Source: Deltaproteobacteria bacterium (GTDB lineage: Bacteria; Desulfobacterota; BSN033; UBA1163). From it: a stretch of DNA of 64,000 bases. This document shows positions 12,752 through 56,650 of the stretch, one piece after another. Each line of letters begins with the position of its first letter. Position 1 is the first letter of the stretch. The notes under the pieces are model-generated. The model saw nothing but the letters and a program-made list of their open reading frames with translations. It was not told the origin of the DNA and made no database searches. The stretch covers positions 20,551-84,550 of the forward strand of contig JAGXTA010000046.1 in the NCBI GenBank assembly GCA_018333535.1, in the 5' to 3' direction. The translations under genes were made by a program, and so were the position numbers.

Positions 12752-13846
12752 ATGATTAAGATTGAGGGGCTTACCATCCTTCTCGGTTCTTTTCGTTTAA
12801 AGGATTTCCACATTGAAATTGCGGAGGGAGAGTTTCACTTTCTCCTCGGTCCCACGGGTAGCGGGAAAACCCTGATCCTGGAGTCGATTATCGGACTGCA
12901 TAAACCCAAAAAAGGAAAGATATGGATTGGCGAAAAGGAGGTTCAAAACCTGCCTCCTGAGCGGAGGGAGATTTCTTATGTTCCTCAAGACCTGGCTCTC
13001 TTCCCGCATCTAAGTGTGAAGGAGAATATCCTTTATGGAATTAGGGCAAAAAATCACTCCTTAAAAACCTATGAGGAATATGTCGGGTCTCTCATTCAGG
13101 TCATGAAAGTTGGACATCTTCTCGAACGATACCCGGCCAATCTTAGCGGAGGGGAGAAGAAACGGGTGGCGCTTCTCAGAGCGCTGGCTCCAAAGCCAAA
13201 ACTCCTTTTGCTTGACGAGCCCCTCTCCGGTCTGGACCCCTCCATCAAATTTGAAATTCAGCAACTCTTAAAAACCCTCCACGCCTCTTTTCATCCAACG
13301 GTTTTATGTGTTTCCCATGACTTCGAGGAAGCCTACCTCCTGGGAGATAAGATGACCATTTTCATTGATGGAAAAGTGGAGCAGGTCGGAAAAAGAGACG
13401 ATGTTTTTTTAAAACCCAGATCCCAAAAGGTGGCACAATTTCTGGGGTTAAAGAATCTTTACAGGGGCAAAGTCCTGACAAAGGGGGAGGCCGATCAACG
13501 ATGGGTTCTCGACATCAACGGTCTCCGATTTTCCGTACCGGGCAGTGCCTGTCAGGATCAGATGGAGATAGGAAAAGAGGTGGACATCTACATCCGACCT
13601 GAAGAGGTGATGATCCTCCGTGAAGGGAAGTCTGTCAAAGAATCTCTGAAGAAGAATATCTTCGAGGGGAAAATTTCGGATATTGCCAATAGAGGCAGAC
13701 ACCATACCGTGGCATTCCAGGATGAAGAAAGACGGATCTTTTTCGAAATCTCCATTCCCAATTACGCCTTCCGGAATCTCGATCTGTCGATTGGTAAAAC
13801 CACAAAGGTCGCCCTCCGCGACGAATCCCTCTGGGTGATGGAATAA
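12752..13846 (+). CDS. Molybdate/tungstate ABC transporter ATP-binding protein with a C-terminal TOBE-like domain (ModC-like)
   Basis: Walker A GPTGSGKT, signature LSGGEKKRVAL and Walker B LLLDEP. The roughly 130-aa C-terminal extension is typical of ModC. Confidence 0.85.
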   Translation: MIKIEGLTILLGSFRLKDFHIEIAEGEFHFLLGPTGSGKTLILESIIGLHKPKKGKIWIGEKEVQNLPPERREISYVPQDLALFPHLSVKENILYGIRAKNHSLKTYEEYVGSLIQVMKVGHLLERYPANLSGGEKKRVALLRALAPKPKLLLLDEPLSGLDPSIKFEIQQLLKTLHASFHPTVLCVSHDFEEAYLLGDKMTIFIDGKVEQVGKRDDVFLKPRSQKVAQFLGLKNLYRGKVLTKGEADQRWVLDINGLRFSVPGSACQDQMEIGKEVDIYIRPEEVMILREGKSVKESLKKNIFEGKISDIANRGRHHTVAFQDEERRIFFEISIPNYAFRNLDLSIGKTTKVALRDESLWVME

Positions 13847-19262: not shown

Positions 19263-19375
19263 CTCCTTTGGAATATTGGAATGTTGGAACAATGGAATAA
19301 TGGGGAAGGCTGAGAAGATTCTTTTCGACACAACATTCCATCATTCCATAATTCCATTCTTCCATGATCAAAAGT
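19263..19375. promoter_or_regulatory. Array of inverted TGGAAT/ATTCCA repeats between moeA and mobB
   Basis: GGAATATTGGAATGTTGGAACAATGGAATAATGG faces CATTCCATCATTCCATAATTCCATTCTTCC. This is either a long imperfect hairpin or an array of protein-binding sites. Confidence 0.45.
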
Positions 19376-20582
19376 TTCGTTCCAGCAATTGCACCTTCAC
19401 TTTCTCCCCTGCCCTGACAATCTCTTGGCTTTCGGGGATGACGATAAGGCCATTGGCCCTGACCATGGATCTCAATATCCCTGACCCCTGTGGACCTGTC
19501 GTTGTCACCGAATAGCCGTCGTTTTCAAATGAGACCATGGCCCGGATAAAATGTTTTTTCCCCGGCTCTTTACGAATTTCCTCCTTTAGAACAGCCTCGA
19601 TAACAGGCTGAAAGATTTGCCGATGGCCCATCATCTTCAAGAGCGATGGCCTTACAAACTGTTCAAAGGTGATCATGGAGGAAACAGGGTTTCCCGGAAG
19701 GCTGAAGGCTGGCTTCTTATCAAACATCCAGAAAGCCACGGGTTTCCCTGGTTTCATTGCGACTCTCCAGAATATCATCTCCACGCCCAGTTCCTTCAGG
19801 ACATCCCTGACGAAATCATAATCCCCTACGGAGACACCCGCTGACGAAATAAAAACATCAGACCGAAGCCCCTGAAGAATCTTCTTTTTAATCTCATCTT
19901 TTTGGTCTTTCGCAATTCCCAATTGAATCGGGATCGCTCCGCACTCCCTGACCTGGGCGGCCAATGTGTAGGAATTGCTGGAGACAATCTTCACCCCATC
20001 CAGGCTCTCACCCACATCCACCAGTTCCTCACCAGTACAGAGGACCGCCACTGATGGCCTTTGATAAACCGAGACGAATGACCTTCCCATAGAGGCAAGC
20101 ATCCCGATTTCTGATGGACGGATGATATCCCCTTTGGTGATCACCCGATCTCCCCTCTTTACATCCTCCCCTGCCCTTCGGATGTACCCACCGGGAAAAC
20201 CAGCCTTCAGAATGATGACAAAACCGTTTCCCCTTTCCGTCTCCTCAACAGGCACAACCGCATCAGCGCCTTTTGGGATGGGGGCGCCGGTCATAATTCT
20301 TATGGCCTGACCCTTTTGGACTGTTTTTTCCGAAATGAATCCAGCGCGAAGATCTTCAATCACTTCTAAGCGGACAGGATTCTTTTCAGAAGCATCCGGA
20401 ATATCTTCATACCTGACCGCATAACCGTCCATCCCCGAATTATCATAAGGGGGAAGATCACGAGGGGCAATCATATCCTCCGCAATCACCCGGCCCAGGG
20501 CATCCAGAATGGATACCTTCTCAAACCCCATGGGCTGGATGTGAGAAAGGGTTTTATCTAAGGCTTCTTCTACGGTGATCAT
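19368..20582 (-). CDS. moeA: Molybdopterin molybdotransferase MoeA
   Basis: 404 aa. MoeA N-terminal and MoCF-biosynthesis domains. SGMDGYAV motif. Confidence 0.9.
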   Translation of the reverse strand: MITVEEALDKTLSHIQPMGFEKVSILDALGRVIAEDMIAPRDLPPYDNSGMDGYAVRYEDIPDASEKNPVRLEVIEDLRAGFISEKTVQKGQAIRIMTGAPIPKGADAVVPVEETERGNGFVIILKAGFPGGYIRRAGEDVKRGDRVITKGDIIRPSEIGMLASMGRSFVSVYQRPSVAVLCTGEELVDVGESLDGVKIVSSNSYTLAAQVRECGAIPIQLGIAKDQKDEIKKKILQGLRSDVFISSAGVSVGDYDFVRDVLKELGVEMIFWRVAMKPGKPVAFWMFDKKPAFSLPGNPVSSMITFEQFVRPSLLKMMGHRQIFQPVIEAVLKEEIRKEPGKKHFIRAMVSFENDGYSVTTTGPQGSGILRSMVRANGLIVIPESQEIVRAGEKVKVQLLERNF

Positions 20583-27777: not shown

Positions 27778-27992
27778 CGCTTTTCCCATCTAAGGATCCT
27801 TCTTTAGAAAATAAATTGATCGGGAATATTCTAAGGGAATATCCCCGGATGGCCAGGATCATGGAAAGATATTTTGGTGGACATTGCCTGGAAAGGTCTG
27901 GCTTTAAGATCCAGACACTCGGGATGGCCTGCATCCTATTCGGCGTCGATCAGAAGCAGTTGCTTCAAGAATTTGAGAAAATCCAAAATTGA
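27774..27992 (+). CDS. DUF1858 domain protein (hybrid-cluster-protein-associated redox disulfide-like)
   Basis: IGNILREYPRMARIMERYFGGHCLERSGFKIQTLGMACILFGVD matches the DUF1858 pattern (Y-P...HC...C...TL.EA....G.D). Confidence 0.6.
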   Translation: MTLFPSKDPSLENKLIGNILREYPRMARIMERYFGGHCLERSGFKIQTLGMACILFGVDQKQLLQEFEKIQN

Positions 27993-28951
27993 TAGACATG
28001 ACAAAAAACCCAAGTGGCCCGAAATACATCTTTGGACCGGTTCCTTCCAGAAGATTGGGAAGATCCTTGGGAGTCGATCTTGTCCCATATAAAACCTGTA
28101 CCTTTGATTGCATCTATTGCGATTTGGGAAGGACCACTTTTAAAACAACCTCTCGAAAATCTTATGTATCAACTGAGGAAGTCCAAAGGGAACTGGATCT
28201 TACTTTATCTCCCTTAGAAAAGAAGCCAGATTACATTACTCTCTCCGGGTCAGGGGAGCCCACATTGAATCAAAATATTGGAGATATCATCCACACCATC
28301 AAGCATTGGACTTCTATCCCTGTGGCAGTTCTAACGAACGGCTCTCTCCTCTCTATCGAAGAAGTCAGAAAAGATTTAATTGATGCCGATGTGGTTTTGC
28401 CTTCTCTCGATGCCATCAACGACGTGACTTTCCAGTGTTTGAACAGACCTCACCCGTCGTTAAAAATAGATGAAATCATTTTGGGTCTCATTCAATTTCG
28501 AAATCAGTATCGAGGCCAAATCTGGCTCGAAGTGGTCTTTTGCAGAGGGATAAACGACGATAAAGAGGAGATTGAAAGACTCAAAGGGATCATCGAAAGA
28601 ATCCAGCCCGATAGGGTTCAATTGAACACACCCGTCAGGCCGCCTGCTGAAGAATTTGCTTATCCCTTAACAACAACTCAGATTGAAGAAATAAGGAAAA
28701 AATTGGGAGATAAGGCGGAGATTATTTCTGAATTTACTGCTCCCCTGGGAGAAGAATTTAACTCCGTGAAGGATACAGAGATTCTTAACTTGATCAAGAG
28801 AAGACCTTGCACAACGGAAGATATTTCTAAAGCTCTTGGACTCCGTATAGATGAAGTTGTGAAGCATTTAGATCATCTTACAAAAACAGGGCCAATCCGA
28901 TATCGAATGTATGAGCACCATTGTTATTACGAGTTTAATGTAACTAATTGA
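27989..28951 (+). CDS. Radical SAM protein (COG0731-like) with a C-terminal winged-helix-like region
   Basis: CTFDCIYCDLG CX3CX2C motif near the N-terminus. 320 aa. Confidence 0.8.
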   Translation: MIDMTKNPSGPKYIFGPVPSRRLGRSLGVDLVPYKTCTFDCIYCDLGRTTFKTTSRKSYVSTEEVQRELDLTLSPLEKKPDYITLSGSGEPTLNQNIGDIIHTIKHWTSIPVAVLTNGSLLSIEEVRKDLIDADVVLPSLDAINDVTFQCLNRPHPSLKIDEIILGLIQFRNQYRGQIWLEVVFCRGINDDKEEIERLKGIIERIQPDRVQLNTPVRPPAEEFAYPLTTTQIEEIRKKLGDKAEIISEFTAPLGEEFNSVKDTEILNLIKRRPCTTEDISKALGLRIDEVVKHLDHLTKTGPIRYRMYEHHCYYEFNVTN

Positions 28952-33131: not shown

Positions 33132-33839
33132 ATGGCCGAAGCAATAGATGGATGCGTGAAACCGGCAAAAGGGCCAATTATGGCTGGAGAATCGAAAGCC
33201 TCTCAACTGTCACCAATTCAAAAGGAGGAAATCAAAATGATCGCTCGAGTTGGCAAACCGGCGCCCGATTTTGAGGCAAGCGCCTATGTGGATGGGGGAT
33301 TCAAGAACATTAAGCTTTCAAATTATAAAGGAAAGTGGGTCGTCCTTTGCTTTTACCCTGGAGATTTTACCTTTGTCTGACCTACTGAATTGTCGGCAGT
33401 TGCCGCCAAATATCAAGAATTCAAGTCCCTTGGCGTAGAATTTTTATCATTCAGCACAGACAGTCGTTTTACCCACAAGATCTGGCAGGAGGAGGAGCTC
33501 TCAAAAATGGTTCCAGGTGGAGTGCCATTTCCAATGCTGTCAGATGCAGGTGGTCGTATTGGTAGTGTCTATGGAGTCTACGATGAAGATGCAGGGGTGG
33601 ACATTCGGGGTCGTTTTTTAATCGATCCGGATGGAGTCATTCAAGCCATGGAGACGGTCACGCCACCGGTGGGCCGGAACGTTTCTGAACTGATCCGACA
33701 GGTCAAGGCTTTTCAGCATACACGCGTTACAGGTGAGGTGATGCCTTCCGGATGGCAGCCTGGAAAACCGACCTTAAAGCCCGGTCCTGATTTGGTGGGA
33801 AAAGTTTGGAAGGTCTGGAAACCGGAAATGGCCTATTAA
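33132..33839 (+). CDS. Peroxiredoxin (AhpC/Tsa family) with in-frame UGA (selenocysteine predicted) at the peroxidatic-Cys position. Copy 1.
   Basis: ...FYPGDFTFV[TGA 33378-33380]PTEL... where the family has FVCPTE. The ORF track shows two same-frame ORFs split only by this TGA. The N-terminal 35-aa extension is conserved by synonymous changes in copy 2. Confidence 0.8.
33392..33407 (+). promoter_or_regulatory. Candidate bacterial SECIS hairpin 11 nt downstream of UGA in copy 1
   Basis: GTCGGCAGTTGCCGCC, a small stem-loop with GUU in the loop. Conserved in copy 2 at 38734-38749. Confidence 0.4.
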
Positions 33840-37307: not shown

Positions 37308-38459
37308 ATGAGATCTTTTCTTAATCAATATGTTAAATTACCCATCGTTTTATTTGCCTTAATTCTTCCCTTATTTTTTACTATATCAATCTCTCTCGCT
37401 TTAGACTTCGCTCCCATTCGAACCCCGTCCACCGGCTATCAACCTCAATTTCAAGTCTCAGGGAACAAAATCTACTATGTCTGGCATGAGTACGATGGTC
37501 CCTATCGGCAGATTTTCACTGCGGAAATGAACACTGATGGGACAGGATGGAGGTCAGAAAAAAGAACTTCTGGCCAATTTGATAAAGTCTTTCCTCAACT
37601 TCAGGTTGCGAATGACAAGATCTATTATGTTCGTCAGCAACCTGATCTAACAATAAATCGCCAGATCTGGACGATGGAGATGAGCATTGACGGAACAGGA
37701 TGGAAAGAGGTTCAGAGGACGAATACCCCCTTTGATAAGCAGTTTCCCCAGCTACAGGTGGTTGGCAATAAAATTTATTATACCTGGAATGAATCAGATG
37801 GAAAACACCGCCAGGTATGGACAGCAGAGATGAATTTAGATGGGTTGGGCTGGGAGGCAGTGAAAAGGACCTCAACACCTTATGACAAATTTGAGCCTCA
37901 GCTTCAGGTCGTGGGTGAAAAAATCTATTTCGTTTGGAGGGAGTTTGACGGAAGACATTTTCAGATCTGGACGGCTGTCATGGATATTGATGGGAAAGGG
38001 TGGCAAGAAGTGAAGCGGACAAATACCCTGTTCGACAAACATAACCCGCAACTCCAGGTGGATGAAGGAAGAATCTACTATACCTGGCATGAAGCAGATG
38101 GCCCGGATTGGCAAAAAGCAAGATATCAGATATGGACAGCTCAGATGAACATCAATGGAACAGGATGGCTGGCGAATCAAAGAACCTTTGTAGGCTTTGA
38201 TAAGTATACCCCCCAATTACAAGTTCAACGAGGAAGAATTTATTATATCTGGGAGGAATCTGATGGGAAATATCGTCAGATTTGGACGGCTGTGACGAGT
38301 AAGGATGGAACGGGATGGATATCTGAAAAGAGGACGACATCTCCTTATGGAAAATACGACCCCCAATTTCAGATTGTTGGGAATAGAGTTTATTATGTGT
38401 GGCACGAAGACCACGGACCTACTGAACCCATCTGGGTGGCTATAGAGACACTAAAATAG
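37308..38459 (+). CDS. Secreted repeat protein with about 6.5 tandem copies of a roughly 46-aa unit (beta-propeller-like)
   Basis: Signal peptide. Repeats of [48 protein letters not shown]. Confidence 0.7.
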
Positions 38460-38473
38460 AAAGGAGGTTAAAT

Positions 38474-39181
38474 ATGGCTGAAGCAAAAGATGGATGTGTG
38501 AAGCCGGCAAAGGGGCCCATCGGTTTGGCGGAAACCAAAACCTCTCAAACCGCACAAATCCAAAAGGAGGAATTGAAGATGATGGCTCAAGTTGGAAAAC
38601 CAGCACTGGATTTTGAAGCGAGTGCCTATATCGACGGGGGTTTTAAAAATATCAAATTATCTGATTATAAAGGCAAATGGGTAGTCCTCTGTTTTTATCC
38701 CGGTGATTTCACGTTCGTTTGACCTACCGAGTTGTCGGCAGTTGCCGTCAAATACGATGAGTTCAAATCGCTCGGAGTTGAGGTTTTGTCATGCAGTACA
38801 GATAGCCGCTTCATCCACAAGATCTGGCAGGAAGAAGAACTCTCGAAGATGGTGAAAGGTGGGGTTCCCTTTCCGATGCTGTCGGATGCAGGAGGCCGCA
38901 TCGGGAGTGCCTACGGCGTCTACGATGAAGAAGCAGGAGTCAATATTCGGGGTCGTTTTTTGATCGATCCGGATGGGGTCATCCAGGCAATGGAGACTGT
39001 TGCTCCACCGGTCGGCAGGAACGTTCCCGAACTGATCCGGCAGGTCAAGGCCTTTCAGCATGTGCGTGCAACGGGTGAGGTCATGCCTTCCGGATGGCAA
39101 CCTGGGAAACCGACCCTAAAACCCGGACTGGATTTGGTTGGCAAAGTATGGAAAGTCTGGAAACCCGAGATGGCTTTTTAA
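38474..39181 (+). CDS. Peroxiredoxin (AhpC/Tsa family) with in-frame UGA (selenocysteine predicted) at the peroxidatic-Cys position. Copy 2.
   Basis: ...FYPGDFTFV[TGA 38720-38722]PTEL.... About 75-80% nt identity to copy 1 across the whole gene, including the N-terminal extension. Confidence 0.8.
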
Positions 39182-39272
39182 CACTATTCCCTGACCCCCT
39201 GCCTACCGCGAGGCAGGCATCCCTCTCCCCCTGCCTACCGGCAGGCAGGCGCTGGGGAGAGGGAGAGGTAAA

Positions 39273-39734
39273 ATGTACAGATGTATGATGGATAAGGAAG
39301 CTCATCAACTTAAAGATTTTTTAGAATTGGGTGGACTAAAAAGTACCAAAGAAAGAGAAACGATTCTCAAAGAACTTGAAGTTCTGGAGGAACATTTCAA
39401 CGCTGAAAAACTATATTCAATTCTCAGCAGAAAGGGAACGAAGGTCTCACGACCTACTATTTATCGAACGCTAAAGCTTCTTGAACGATTCCATCTCATT
39501 GAAAGGCTCGATGTTAAAAAGAACTGTTTCTATTACGAGCCTATGTCTCATAAAAAGGACCATGGCCATCTGGTTTGCGAGCATTGTGGGAGGATTATTG
39601 ATTTTGCAAGTGAGAGTATTCAAGATTTGAAATCGGAGGTATTCGAGGGGAAGAACTTCAAACTGGACAATATTTCCATTCAGATATTCGGCATATGCGA
39701 GACATGTCAGAAAACATCTAAAATTAAAAGCTAA
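39273..39734 (+). CDS. Fur-family transcriptional regulator (PerR-like by context)
   Basis: HGHLVCEHCG...CETCQ metal sites and the Fur fold. It lies between the Sec-peroxiredoxin and the Sec-NADH-oxidase-like gene. Confidence 0.8.
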   Translation: MYRCMMDKEAHQLKDFLELGGLKSTKERETILKELEVLEEHFNAEKLYSILSRKGTKVSRPTIYRTLKLLERFHLIERLDVKKNCFYYEPMSHKKDHGHLVCEHCGRIIDFASESIQDLKSEVFEGKNFKLDNISIQIFGICETCQKTSKIKS

Positions 39735-39750
39735 ATATGAGGAGAGGAAG

Positions 39751-41118
39751 ATGTTAAAGAAAGAGAAACTTGTCATCATTGGCGGATCGGCCGCTGGCCC
39801 CAGTGCAGCAGCCAGGGCAAAGCGAGTTAATCCTGATCTTGAAGTGACTATGTTCGAACAGGGTCGATTCGTATCCTATGGCTCCTGAGAAACTCCTTAT
39901 TACATCGGTGATGTAGTAAAAGATCAGAGCAAATTGATAGTCCGGACACCCCAACAGTTTAAAGAAATGCAAGATATTGATGTGAAGACCGAGCATCGCG
40001 TCACTAAAATTGATTCCAAAGAGAAAAGGATTGAAGTTGTGAATTTATCAAAATCCGAAACTCAATGGTTTTCTTACGACAAACTTATCGTTGCTACAGG
40101 TGCCCGATCCAGACGTCTCAATATTCCCGGAAGCAATGCCAAGAACATATTCACCCTGAAAGATCTTGATGACGGCATCCGTATTAAGAATTATATCGAT
40201 GAAAAAAGGCCGAAAAGGGTTGCTATCCTCGGTGGTGGCTTTATTGCATTGGAGATGTGCGAGGCTTTTCGGTTAAGAAATTGTGAGACCTTTCTATTCT
40301 GCCGCAGAGATTTACCCGCGGGTAATCTCGAAAGGGAAATCTCTGAAAAAATATTGAAGGAGTTAGAAGAGAATGGCATTCATTTCCTCGCCCATCATGA
40401 ACCCGCAGCATTTAAGATGAATAGTAATGGAGAAGCCATCTCCTTCGAAACCAATAAAGCCGAATATCCTGTGGATATGGTCTTGATGGCCATTGGAGTC
40501 ATTCCGAATGTGGAAATAGCTAAAGAGGCAGGTATTGAGCTTGGAAAGACCGGAGCGATTCGAACAGACACGGCTCAAAGGACTAATCTTACAGACATTT
40601 ATTCGGCAGGAGACTGCTCAGAAGTTTTTAATCTCGTGAGTCAGGATTGGGTTCATACACCCCTTGGAGATATTGCGAACAAACAGGGCCGGGTGGCAGG
40701 TGAGAACGCTGCCGGTGGAAAGGCCACTTTTTCCGGTGCAGTGGGGTCAGCTGCTTTTAAGGTTTTTGAATTGGAGGTGGCCTTCACAGGTTTAGGAACA
40801 CAGACTGCCCGAGGATATGGTTTTGATGTGGATTCACAGATCATTGAGGCTGAATCGAAGGTAGGATATATGCCGGGATCAAAATGGATGCTCATTAAGT
40901 TGATTTTTGATAGAAGGAGTGGAAGGCTTTTGGGTGCTCAGATGGTCGGGAAGGAAGGAGTGGCTCGGAGGATCAACGCCCTTGCGGTCGCGGTTCATCA
41001 GAAGATGAGCGTGGACGAAATTGCACGGCTCGATTTTGCTTATGCGCCTCCTTTCTCCGCTCCCTTGGATCCGATTTTAATAGCTGCCGAGCAGGCAGCG
41101 AAGAAAATCGTTAGGTAG
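39751..41118 (+). CDS. NADH oxidase/CoA-disulfide reductase-family FAD-dependent oxidoreductase with in-frame UGA (selenocysteine predicted) at the redox-active Cys position
   Basis: RBS GAGGAGAGG. N-terminal FAD motif LVIIGGSAAGPSAAARAKR. FVSYGS[TGA 39886-39888]ETPYYIGDVV compares with the family motif ISFANCGLPYYIGG. The frame is continuous with ORF 39934-41118. Confidence 0.75.
39896..39919 (+). promoter_or_regulatory. Candidate bacterial SECIS hairpin beginning about 10 nt after UGA
   Basis: Stem TTATTACATC/GATGTAGTAA with one mismatch. Apical loop GGU. Confidence 0.45.
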
Positions 41119-41164
41119 AAAATACAGGATTCTGAATTTAATAAAAATCCAAAAGGAGGAGAAC

Positions 41165-41341
41165 ATGGCAGTCATTATTGATCTGGAAAAATGCACAGGA
41201 TGCGGTACTTGTGAAGAGGGTTGTCCGGTAGAGGCCATTAAGATTGAGAATGAGAAGGCTGTAGTCGATGCAGAGACCTGCGTTGATTGTGGCACCTGTA
41301 TCGATGAATGTGCTGAAAAAGCCATCAGCGAAGGAACATAA
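41165..41341 (+). CDS. 2x[4Fe-4S] ferredoxin (58 aa)
   Basis: CTGCGTCEEGCP and CVDCGTCIDEC motifs. RBS AAAGGAGG. Below the ORF-track size cutoff. Confidence 0.8.
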   Translation: MAVIIDLEKCTGCGTCEEGCPVEAIKIENEKAVVDAETCVDCGTCIDECAEKAISEGT

Positions 41342-41347
41342 GGAGCA

Positions 41348-41797
41348 ATGAAAAAGTCTGGAAAAGTTGTCGGTGTGTGTACGAGTCAAAGGAGGGCTGA
41401 TCCAAAGATAAATGTTGGTAGGGGTCTCCTCAAAATGGGTCATGGGCTAGTAGGCGATTCTCATGCCGGGACTGAGAAAGAGGTTAGCCTTTTGGCGATG
41501 GAGAGTATCCAAAAACTTTGCCAGGAGACGGGGCTCTCGGCTGGGCCTGGATCCTTTGCTGAAAATATCACCACGGAAGGGATTGATTTGACCTCTCTCC
41601 CCGCAGGTACCCAATTACAGATCGGACAAACAAAACTCAAGGTTATTCAAATTGGAAAAGATCCATCTCAAGCTCACACTTACAACTATCAGGGATTTTC
41701 CATTTTACCGAAGGAAGGCGTGTTTTGTAAGGTCATTGAAGGTGGGGAGATAAAAGTAGGAGATTCTATAAAGATACTCAAAAACCAAGAGGTTTAG
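41348..41797 (+). CDS. MOSC domain protein
   Basis: 149 aa, YiiM/MOSC-like, with GDSHAG and VIEGGEIKVGD. Confidence 0.65.
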   Translation: MKKSGKVVGVCTSQRRADPKINVGRGLLKMGHGLVGDSHAGTEKEVSLLAMESIQKLCQETGLSAGPGSFAENITTEGIDLTSLPAGTQLQIGQTKLKVIQIGKDPSQAHTYNYQGFSILPKEGVFCKVIEGGEIKVGDSIKILKNQEV

Positions 41798-55590: not shown

Positions 55591-55627
55591 ATAAGCGGCT
55601 GTGCGCTTGGAGAACGAAAGGACACCT

Positions 55628-56650
55628 ATGAAGAAGATTAGGATCGAAGATGCCGTGGGAATGATTCTCGGCCATGATGTGACCCAGATTATCCCGGGAC
55701 AATACAAGGGACCCCGCTTCAGACGAGGGCACCTGATCAAGGAAGGAGACATTCCTGAATTTATAAAAATCGGCAAGGAACATGTATATGTAATGGAATT
55801 AAAAGCCGGGGTCATTCATGAGGATGAGGCCGCGCTTCGGTTAGGAAGGGCATTCTCTGGAGAAAATATTGACTTGACCGGGCCATCCGAAGGTAAGGTA
55901 ACGTTCCTATCAAAAATAAGCGGAATATTAAAGGTAAACTTATCCTTACTTCACCGTATCAACCTCTCAGGTAATATCATCCTTTCTACCCTTCACCGGC
56001 ATACTCCCTGCTCCCAAAGGATGGCAGTTGGGGCAACCCGAATTATATCTCTCACTGCTCCGGAAAGGCAGATTGAAAAAATAGAAAACTGGCGTGATAA
56101 ATATGGGCCGGTCGTCGAAATTCTTCCTTATCGGACGCTGAATGTCGGTGTGGTGGTAACGGGAAATGAATTCTTTCACGGAAGAACCGAGGACCGATTT
56201 GATGATAGGGTGGGGAAAAAGATTTTAAATTTTGGATCGCAGGTGGTGAAGAAGCAGATCGTTCCAGATGATATTCAACAAATCTCTAAAGCTTTATTAG
56301 AGTTTCAAGATGCCAATATTGACCTCATCTTGATCACAGGAGGGCTTTCTGTTGATCCTGATGATGTCACACGAGCAGGAATCAAAAAGTCTGGCGCCAA
56401 GATCATATTTTATGGTACTCCCGTTCTTCCCGGAGCAATGTTTCTCTATGGGATGCTCGATGGGAAACCAATTCTGGGCCTTCCAGCCTGCGTATTCTAT
56501 CATAAAGCAACTCTTTTTGACGTGATCTTCCAGAGAATTCTGGCGGGTGAAGTGCTCAGCAGGAGAGAAATTAGTCTTCTTGGCCACGGAGGCTTTTGCC
56601 AAGGCTGTGATCCATGTCATTTCCCAGTGTGTCCTTTTGGGAAGGGATAG
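55628..56650 (+). CDS. Molybdopterin-binding (MoCF-biosynthesis) domain protein with a C-terminal Cys cluster
   Basis: LITGGLSVDPDDVT motif. C-terminal GHGGFCQGCDPCHFPVCPFG. Confidence 0.55.
   Translation: MKKIRIEDAVGMILGHDVTQIIPGQYKGPRFRRGHLIKEGDIPEFIKIGKEHVYVMELKAGVIHEDEAALRLGRAFSGENIDLTGPSEGKVTFLSKISGILKVNLSLLHRINLSGNIILSTLHRHTPCSQRMAVGATRIISLTAPERQIEKIENWRDKYGPVVEILPYRTLNVGVVVTGNEFFHGRTEDRFDDRVGKKILNFGSQVVKKQIVPDDIQQISKALLEFQDANIDLILITGGLSVDPDDVTRAGIKKSGAKIIFYGTPVLPGAMFLYGMLDGKPILGLPACVFYHKATLFDVIFQRILAGEVLSRREISLLGHGGFCQGCDPCHFPVCPFGKG

Follow-up and report, generated by a model that had tools for sequence, protein, structure and literature searches.

Does an in-frame TGA at the active site of a flavoprotein gene end translation, or is it read as selenocysteine (Sec)? 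This question is raised by a gene in a 64,000-nucleotide stretch of DNA from a Deltaproteobacteria bacterium (assembly GCA_018333535.1, contig JAGXTA010000046.1, positions 20,551 to 84,550 of the forward strand), which was analysed as a whole and is referred to as the window; all positions are counted from its first letter. In public databases the gene is represented by a truncated protein that begins downstream of the TGA. The comparative evidence presented here indicates that the gene is in all likelihood translated through the TGA, with Sec as the catalytic residue and a functional Sec insertion sequence (SECIS) directly 3' of the codon.

An in-frame UGA takes the place of the catalytic cysteine codon

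Translation from ATG 39751 gives MLKKEKLVIIGGSAAGPSAAARAKRVNPDLEVTMFEQGRFVSYGS up to the TGA at 39886-39888, continues with ETPYYIGDVVKDQSKL... and stays open until TAG 41116-41118. The TGA is the sole disruption of the frame. A mechanical list of open reading frames (ORFs) contained only a 394-aa ORF starting at TTG 39934, which lies in the same frame as ATG 39751. In the original prediction, ATG 39751 with its ribosome-binding site had been taken to open a frame that runs into this 394-aa ORF and yields a 455-aa read-through protein, and the translation obtained here was identical to the predicted one.

The 455-aa product (U written as C) matched the Pfam families PF07992 Pyr_redox_2 (3.6e-59), PF00070 Pyr_redox (3.9e-17) and PF02852 Pyr_redox_dim (3.6e-16). 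It thus has the domain combination, Pyr_redox_2 plus a C-terminal Pyr_redox_dim, by which the group of CoA-disulfide reductases (CoADR), NADH oxidases (Nox) and NADH peroxidases (Npx) is recognised. A search of the PDB returned 6ruz as the best match (1.7e-101, residues 5-449), and full-length alignments were also obtained with 6pfz, 3cgb and 3icr. Residue 46, the one specified by the UGA, aligned with the catalytic Cys of 6ruz (SYGaCGLPY) and likewise with that of 6pfz and 3cgb, so that the placement of the UGA at the redox-active Cys, as originally proposed, proved exact in the alignment to Nox/CoADR structures. The motif of the single redox Cys in this group, S-[FY]-x-x-C-x-x-P-Y (near residue 42-46, with no CxxxxC disulfide), is present as SYGS-U-ETPYY, in which the UGA occupies the Cys position. 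Cys is found at this position in 150 representative homologs, mostly as CG[LIM]P, and in the P-Y that follows the active site the protein agrees with the CoADR-like branch. In the PDB alignment, Tyr373 and Tyr431 of the flavoprotein correspond to Tyr367 and Tyr425 of the Bacillus anthracis enzyme, which we take to be active-site residues of that CoADR; this correspondence likewise fits the CoADR-like branch. With high confidence, the gene at 39751-41118 is predicted to encode a 455-aa, homodimer-type flavoprotein of the CoADR/Nox/Npx group.

The UGA is conserved and both of its flanks are under the same coding constraint

To assess conservation, orthologs were scanned with one genome per species. 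The 12 orthologous loci found (78-89% protein identity) all came from metagenome-assembled genomes (MAGs) labelled Syntrophaceae, Thermodesulfobacteriota or Deltaproteobacteria. TGA occupied the same codon in all 12, each time preceded by a conserved in-frame N-terminal segment for binding of flavin adenine dinucleotide (FAD). It was also present in two distant clades (loci L020 and L021) and in about 23 further metagenome genes; distant homologs of Clostridia, Bacilli and Bacteroidales have Cys at this position.

The start ATG was conserved throughout (11/11) when 11 orthologs were aligned by codon. At codons 11-16, which specify the FAD-binding motif, the amino acids were constant despite three to six different codons per column, which argues that this segment 5' of the UGA is translated. 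The 44 codons before the UGA (codons 2-45) had a synonymous diversity of 0.465 and a nonsynonymous diversity of 0.168, and the corresponding values for the rest of the gene were 0.467 and 0.180. Because these diversities match on both sides of the UGA, the upstream segment must be translated in this frame and under the same constraint as the remainder. Together with the hairpin data below, this conservation is far beyond chance.

A hairpin downstream of the UGA is locked by selection

A 10-bp hairpin with a GGU loop, starting about 10 nt 3' of the UGA, had been described in the original prediction as SECIS-like. Folding confirmed a 10-bp stem that starts 8 nt after the last UGA base and has a free energy of -8.4 kcal/mol; 8 of 200 shuffled sequences folded equally well. 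The bacterial SECIS (bSECIS) model of Zhang & Gladyshev 2005, as summarised in PMC13188914, specifies an apical loop of 3-9 nt, an upper stem of 4-16 bp, a G in the first two loop positions, a distance of 16-37 nt between UGA and loop, and a minimum free energy of at most -7.5 kcal/mol. The hairpin at 39897-39919, which is encoded by the codons of (P)YYIGDVV, passed all four bSECIS criteria (3-nt loop GGU, 10 bp, spacing of 18 nt, -8.4 kcal/mol), in agreement with the earlier description. The same criteria were passed after 7.4% of the 2,574 TGA triplets in the window, and the hairpin by itself is therefore weak evidence. Given this looseness of the model, selection on the RNA was examined.

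Codons 50-61 had the lowest synonymous diversity of any 12 consecutive codons in the gene (0.20 vs. a mean of 0.47). The variable sites of the stem are third codon positions which pair with fixed first or second positions, and the base that allows pairing is retained there even though the gene itself prefers other codons. Val55 and Val56 were encoded by GTA in 20 of 21 cases, although GTA is the rarest Val codon in the gene (15%), and Tyr51 was encoded by TAC in all 11 orthologs vs. a background of 18%.

The same peptide in Sec and Cys genes served as a control. A degenerate DNA pattern for [U/C]-x-x-P-Y-Y-I-[G/A]-D-V, in which all synonymous sites were free, was used to draw an unbiased sample of 120 metagenome loci (L025-L144); the genes tabulated from it were 18 different Sec genes and 78 different Cys genes. 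The four hairpin codons TAC, ATC, GAT and GTA occurred together in 17 of the 18 Sec genes vs. none of the 78 Cys genes. Val55 was encoded by GTA in 18/18 Sec genes and 13/78 Cys genes (p = 1.5e-11), a hairpin of -5 kcal/mol or below was formed in 94% vs. 4%, and the loop read GGY in 16/18 vs. 34/78. This comparison is the decisive control, showing that the hairpin is locked by selection in the TGA genes.

Compensatory change was seen where the third base of the Tyr50 codon pairs with the first base of codon 56 (alignment columns 24-40). Among 29 distinct Sec genes this pair was C-G in 15, U-A in 13 and U-G in one, the window's own gene, with no mismatches; the covariation score was reached by none of 500 shuffles. 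In Cys genes, 18 C.A mismatches were found at this pair. In the distant Sec clade represented by L021 (41% identical, motif UGIP) the stem is a different one with a bulged U; the loop is again GGU, follows the UGA at a distance of 22 nt and lies in Arg-Leu codons rather than in a Gly codon.

A lower stem in which the UGA itself pairs with UCA at 39924-26 is conserved in the Syntrophaceae clade. It is absent from the sister Sec clades and is therefore not claimed as part of the element. Rfam models applied at the gathering threshold detected a tRNA-Lys alone and nothing at the UGA sites.

The conservation of the TGA in 12/12 loci, purifying selection upstream of it and the locked hairpin in the TGA genes all support the Sec enzyme put forward in the original prediction. 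We consider it very probable, on comparative grounds, that the gene encodes Sec and carries a functional SECIS.

Alternative readings of the UGA

A number of observations weigh against this interpretation. The covariation is limited to one stem pair and reflects perhaps only two or three evolutionary events, the other stem positions being invariant. It is not significant among the 12 close orthologs alone, where the stem is nearly invariant with a single CG>UG>UA series and the observed values are reached by 85-264 of 500 shuffles. The closest full-length Cys relative, P0142 (gene 87-1430 of locus L024, a Logan SRR22315506 contig; 47% identity, motif C-E-E-P), retains the same stem (TAT TAC ATC ... 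GAT GTA ATC) within CEEPYYIADVI, with the loop GCC and not GGY, and the hairpin is hence not strictly exclusive to Sec genes. As no Cys gene of the metagenome sample has all four hairpin codons, the hairpin of P0142 does not look like a chance resemblance but like the remnant or forerunner of a SECIS; a recent change from Sec to Cys may have left it behind as a fossil, or it may be older than Sec. The genes selA, selB and selD and a tRNA-Sec were not found within the 64-kb window, a result that is uninformative for the whole genome; a Sec machinery in this genome is indirectly supported by the two other conserved Sec-UGA genes of the window and by the Sec trait of Syntrophus aciditrophicus. 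With regard to the identity of the product, the best-matching NCBIfam equivalogs are the CoADR models TIGR03385 and NF007123; the flavoprotein (U as C) scored below both cut-offs (426.9 vs. 578.8 and 422.3 vs. 458 bits, respectively) and also below that of the H2O-forming NADH oxidase model NF046103 (262.8 vs. 600 bits), so that its substrate is not assignable from sequence. Finally, the best NCBIfam model for the Fur-family regulator encoded directly upstream is PerR, at 82.6 bits under an equivalog cut-off of 180 bits.

Among the alternatives, the one that fares best is read-through by a near-cognate tRNA (Cys or Trp) without Sec machinery, the hairpin merely slowing the ribosome or release factor 2. 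It would be in line with the lack of Sec machinery genes in the window and with the similar hairpin kept by the Cys-form relative P0142. We nevertheless judge it very improbable. Loop size, loop G-G and spacing of the hairpin all agree with the model of a SelB-type SECIS; the GGY loop is enriched in Sec genes, and two peroxiredoxin UGAs in the same genome share a 17-18 nt spacing and a G-containing loop. Moreover, a UGA found solely on catalytic Cys positions is a signature of Sec, and use of Sec is documented for the family as well as for the lineage. For S. aciditrophicus, a species with the Sec trait, 19 selenoproteins are listed, none of them a NADH oxidase (PMC1794560).

Less probable still, and hardly to be reckoned with, is the annotated situation, in which UGA 39886 acts as a stop codon and TTG 39934 initiates a 394-aa protein of its own. 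An ORF that could begin at this TTG is indeed present, and automated annotations give the same protein. The best 120 protein-database matches are all approximately 394 aa long, cover about 86% of the query and are cut at the same place; they include a 100%-identical protein (P0001), and the clusters are named 'FAD-dependent oxidoreductase' or 'sulfur reductase-like enzyme'. Such a product, however, would have neither the GxGxxG FAD-binding motif nor the catalytic residue. No Shine-Dalgarno sequence precedes 39934, codon 62 is TTA and thus no start codon in L005, L008 and L012, and the called lengths among P0001-P0120 scatter between 378 and 404 aa with no consistent start. In addition, the 45 upstream codons are under purifying selection.

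A search with the N-terminal part alone returned few candidates, including P0121, P0134 and P0138. In P0138 (JGI) the 45 N-terminal codons were called as a separate 'hypothetical protein' ending in ...FVSYGS, and in P0121 (ENA) the UGA was translated as Trp (W) in a code-4-type gene call. Public gene calls treat the UGA in three inconsistent ways: as Trp, as the end of an orphan N-terminal fragment, or by retaining the 3' fragment alone.

The orphan fragment, the split calls and the approximately 394-aa length of the best 120 database entries might also be expected if the TGA were a disabling mutation or an assembly or sequencing error, giving a pseudogene or an artefactually split gene. This is excluded for practical purposes because the TGA is conserved across loci (it recurs in 12 MAG assemblies made independently and in about 23 further metagenome contigs) and the excess of synonymous over nonsynonymous change is equal on both sides of it; the TGA also falls exactly on the catalytic Cys codon of an otherwise undisrupted frame.

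The Trp call in P0121 would agree with UGA being a sense codon (Trp in code 4 or Gly in code 25) and the residue not being Sec, a proposal to which we attach next to no weight since TGA is the ordinary stop of 20 of the 51 window ORFs of at least 150 aa, at their expected full length (for example FeoB, profile 1-594/594, and MoeA), and the true stop codon of several flavoprotein orthologs. Only three in-frame TGAs with conserved protein context on both sides were found in the 64 kb, all of them at catalytic Cys positions. They correspond to the three closely spaced events reported in the original prediction, which were all recovered and span 6.5 kb.

Predicted mechanism and role of the Sec flavoprotein

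If the UGA at codon 46 is decoded as Sec, as the comparative data suggest, the hairpin 8 nt downstream would recruit SelB carrying Sec-tRNA(Sec). The acting SECIS would then consist of a stem of 8-10 bp and a GGY apical loop starting 18 nt after the UGA. According to the chemistry of the family, NAD(P)H would reduce FAD, and FADH2 would in turn reduce the single redox centre Sec46. The latter could cycle between selenolate and selenenic acid (peroxidase/oxidase mode) or form a selenenyl-sulfide with a low-molecular-weight thiol, e.g. CoA (CoADR mode). Judged from the gene context, the flavoprotein would most likely use NAD(P)H to protect a strictly anaerobic syntroph from oxygen or peroxide, and it may regenerate a thiol reductant for the neighbouring peroxiredoxin.

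A different context was observed for the distant Sec form L021 (L021:1394-2749, a Logan SRR27730047 contig). This gene is adjoined by a hemerythrin gene on one side and by TusA, DsrE, cysteine desulfurase and NifU genes on the other, a sulfur-trafficking environment which suggests that a role as persulfide or polysulfide reductase would suit that protein.

Neighbouring genes

Features of the flavoprotein gene and of its surroundings are listed in the table.

Table. Positions in the window of the predicted selenoprotein genes, associated elements and adjacent genes.
Feature	Positions	Strand	Basis or remark
Shine-Dalgarno-like sequence GAGGAGAGG	39739..39747	+	Direct sequence reading; 3 nt between its end and the start codon
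Complete coding sequence, predicted 455-aa FAD-dependent pyridine nucleotide-disulfide oxidoreductase (CoADR/Nox/Npx group) with Sec at residue 46	39751..41118	+	Translation, Pfam, PDB, read-through orthologs
N-terminal FAD-binding motif GGSAAG (GxGxxG), 5' of the UGA	39781..39798	+	Amino acids of codons 11-16 conserved, with varying codons
In-frame UGA, predicted Sec residue 46, at the position of the single redox-active Cys	39886..39888	+	Structure and ortholog alignments
Putative SECIS hairpin	39897..39919	+	Stem 39897-39906 / 39910-39919; conserved 8-bp core 39899-39906 / 39910-39917; loop GGU 39907-39909
Fur-family regulator gene (PerR-like)	39273..39734	+	Pfam FUR 5.1e-31; ends 16 nt before the flavoprotein start
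Peroxiredoxin paralog 2, UGA 38720-38722 at the peroxidatic Cys	38474..39181	+	Hairpin 38732-38751, loop AGUU; Pfam AhpC-TSA 1.9e-38
Peroxiredoxin paralog 1, UGA 33378-33380 at the peroxidatic Cys	33132..33839	+	SECIS-like hairpin 33390-33409
EncFtn-like/rubrerythrin-like ferritin-fold gene, 97 aa	32705-32998		Just upstream of peroxiredoxin paralog 1
2x[4Fe-4S] ferredoxin gene, 58 aa	41165..41341	+	Directly 3' of the flavoprotein gene; Pfam Fer4 9.6e-14

The Fur-family gene is probably co-transcribed with the flavoprotein gene, and it lies directly upstream of the flavoprotein ortholog in 7 of 11 loci. Further upstream, both peroxiredoxin paralogs contain a TGA within FTFV-U-PTE, followed by a conserved hairpin CGGC-AGUU-GCCG whose loop starts 17 nt after the UGA and which passes the bSECIS criteria. 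The peroxiredoxin orthologs in L004, L005, L006, L009 and L010 keep both TGA and hairpin, with UCGGCAGUUGCCG invariant, and a split peroxiredoxin gene is located near the flavoprotein ortholog in 5/11 loci. The C-terminus of the peroxiredoxins reads GEVMPSGW at what is presumably the site of the resolving Cys in typical 2-Cys peroxiredoxins. As this sequence replaces the usual resolving Cys, an external thiol may be needed; the two proteins may be '1-Sec' enzymes that depend on an external reductant or thiol, and the CoADR-like reductase could regenerate the thiol for the Sec-peroxiredoxin.

The second Sec-peroxiredoxin copy and the EncFtn/rubrerythrin-like gene are situated 5-7 kb upstream of the flavoprotein gene, the latter gene suggesting a further contribution to the oxidative-stress character of the region. 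It is the proximity of the PerR-like gene, the Sec-peroxiredoxins and the EncFtn-like gene that suggests a role in oxidative stress. On the 3' side, a ferredoxin homolog follows in most of the orthologous loci, where it was seen as a match to the antisense ORF w41077_41325.

The 91-nt spacer between peroxiredoxin paralog 2 and the Fur-family gene contains two copies of a GC-rich palindrome (39198-39249), CCTGCCTACCGCGAGGCAGG and CCTGCCTACCGGCAGGCAGG, the second of which is flanked by the inverted repeat CCCTCTCCCC...GGGGAGAGGG. These palindromes could be an attenuator, a terminator or an element resembling repetitive extragenic palindromes. In a promoter and terminator scan of 38300-41500, sites were no more numerous than in shuffled sequences.

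Between the two Sec-peroxiredoxin copies, positions 37308-38459 encode a secreted-looking protein of 383 aa with about seven repeats of approximately 48 aa (…KIYY[VT]W.E.DG…QIWTA.M..DGTGW…), for which only a weak match to DUF5050 was obtained. Elsewhere in the window, genes related to tungsten or molybdenum cofactors were noted at 12752-13846, 19368-20582, 27989-28951 and 55601-56650. This set comprises a WtpC-like tungstate ABC ATPase, a MoeA/Glp-like protein, a MoaA-like or tungsten-cofactor radical SAM maturase-like protein and a MoeA-domain protein, all scoring under the equivalog cut-offs.

Significance

The best 120 database clusters hold only the 3' fragment of the protein, devoid of both the FAD-binding motif and the catalytic residue. 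Owing to this truncation of the entries, selenoproteins of Syntrophaceae and of related environmental Thermodesulfobacteriota are under-counted. The locus adds well-supported natural Sec/Cys pairs to a flavoprotein family with a single catalytic Cys, and it provides a clean example of a SECIS fixed at synonymous sites within a conserved peptide motif. In the literature consulted, no biochemically characterised Sec member of the CoADR/NADH oxidase family was encountered. The linkage of Sec-peroxiredoxin, PerR-like regulator and Sec-flavoprotein suggests how strict anaerobes spend selenium on the defence against oxygen and peroxide. Current understanding is not overturned by these findings, which describe a new member and a sub-clade, systematically mis-annotated as truncated, of a known selenoprotein family.

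Comparison with known systems

NADH oxidase was one of 25 bacterial selenoprotein families tabulated in 2006, with a single member from Geobacter metallireducens (PMC1794560). The Sec-containing FAD-dependent oxidoreductase (COG0446, TIGR03385) of this organism, WP_011365774.1, was first reported by Kryukov & Gladyshev 2004 (as cited in PMC1794560, PMC9312934 and PMC13188914), and a Sec NADH oxidase is also known from the Olavius delta-1 symbiont (PMC1976440). As selenoproteins of this family (COG0446/TIGR03385) have been catalogued from 2004 onwards, the novelty of the present gene is modest. New are the U-E-T-P clade, its truncated public annotation and the linkage to a PerR-like regulator and Sec-peroxiredoxin.

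The window gene shares with the published Sec NADH oxidase/CoADR the enzyme group, one Sec at the single catalytic Cys position just before x-x-P-Y, the origin from an anaerobic deltaproteobacterial lineage and a SECIS in the coding region just 3' of the UGA. The motifs differ: the published proteins of the WP_011365774.1 type have U-G-x-P, whereas the window gene has U-E-T-P, with Glu in place of Gly and the Pro at +3 kept. Sister Sec clades in the metagenome sample carry U-P-M-P, U-E-L-P and similar motifs, and Sec is invariably followed by Pro or Glu, which might reflect catalysis or the codon context of the UGA. In combination with the peptide xxPYYIGDV, the Sec motifs UPMP, UETP, UELP, UEVP, UPAP and UPTP were found, with Gly after Sec in 0/18, vs. 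CGLP in 75 of the 78 Cys genes with the same peptide. The distant Sec form L021 does carry the published-type UGIP. The nearest full-length clusters, which have Cys in a C-[D/E]-x-P motif, are only 43-47% identical. By its motif, the window gene is assigned to a different sub-clade of the published Sec CoADR/NADH oxidase family. In a rough tree, Sec forms appeared at no fewer than three positions interleaved with Cys forms, in keeping with the repeated switches between Cys and Sec described in such families.

A joint reading, which we put forward tentatively and regard as rather unlikely in its entirety, would derive the U-[E/P]-x-P proteins from a Sec origin separate from that of U-G-x-P, with a SECIS built from the PYYIGDV codons. 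Sec flavoprotein and Sec-peroxiredoxin would then form an NAD(P)H-driven, two-selenoprotein module for peroxide removal under a PerR-like regulator in syntrophic anaerobes. With a separate origin, the hairpin may have pre-dated Sec and been exapted, or Sec may have been lost recently in P0142 (CEEP).

The predicted protein aligns from end to end (residues 5-449, E = 1e-101 to 1e-74) with Cys-type CoADR/Nox structures, namely Thermus thermophilus Nox (6ruz), Archaeoglobus NoxA-3 (6pfz), Bacillus anthracis CoADR (3cgb) and Pyrococcus CoADR (4fx9). It has the FAD, NAD(P)H and dimerisation domains and the active-site position in common with them, but differs by Sec instead of Cys, followed by Glu-Thr instead of Gly-Leu.

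Like the fdhF-type SECIS of Escherichia coli, the candidate element is a stem-loop that follows the UGA closely within the ORF; it has a small apical loop beginning with G-G, 18 nt spacing and a free energy not above -7.5 kcal/mol. Unlike it, the window hairpin has a perfect stem of 8-10 bp with no bulged U and a loop of only 3 nt, and it is wholly embedded in the highly conserved peptide motif PYYIGDV. Where sister clades have the U-A variant, the contiguous stem taken by itself is less stable (median -5.7 kcal/mol).

Sec-peroxiredoxin is a known bacterial selenoprotein family of 12 members, including one from S. aciditrophicus (PMC1794560 Table 1). The two neighbouring genes described here resemble the known members in having U at the peroxidatic position (T/SxxU/C-type) and a conserved hairpin, and differ from them in that two paralogs occur within 6 kb.

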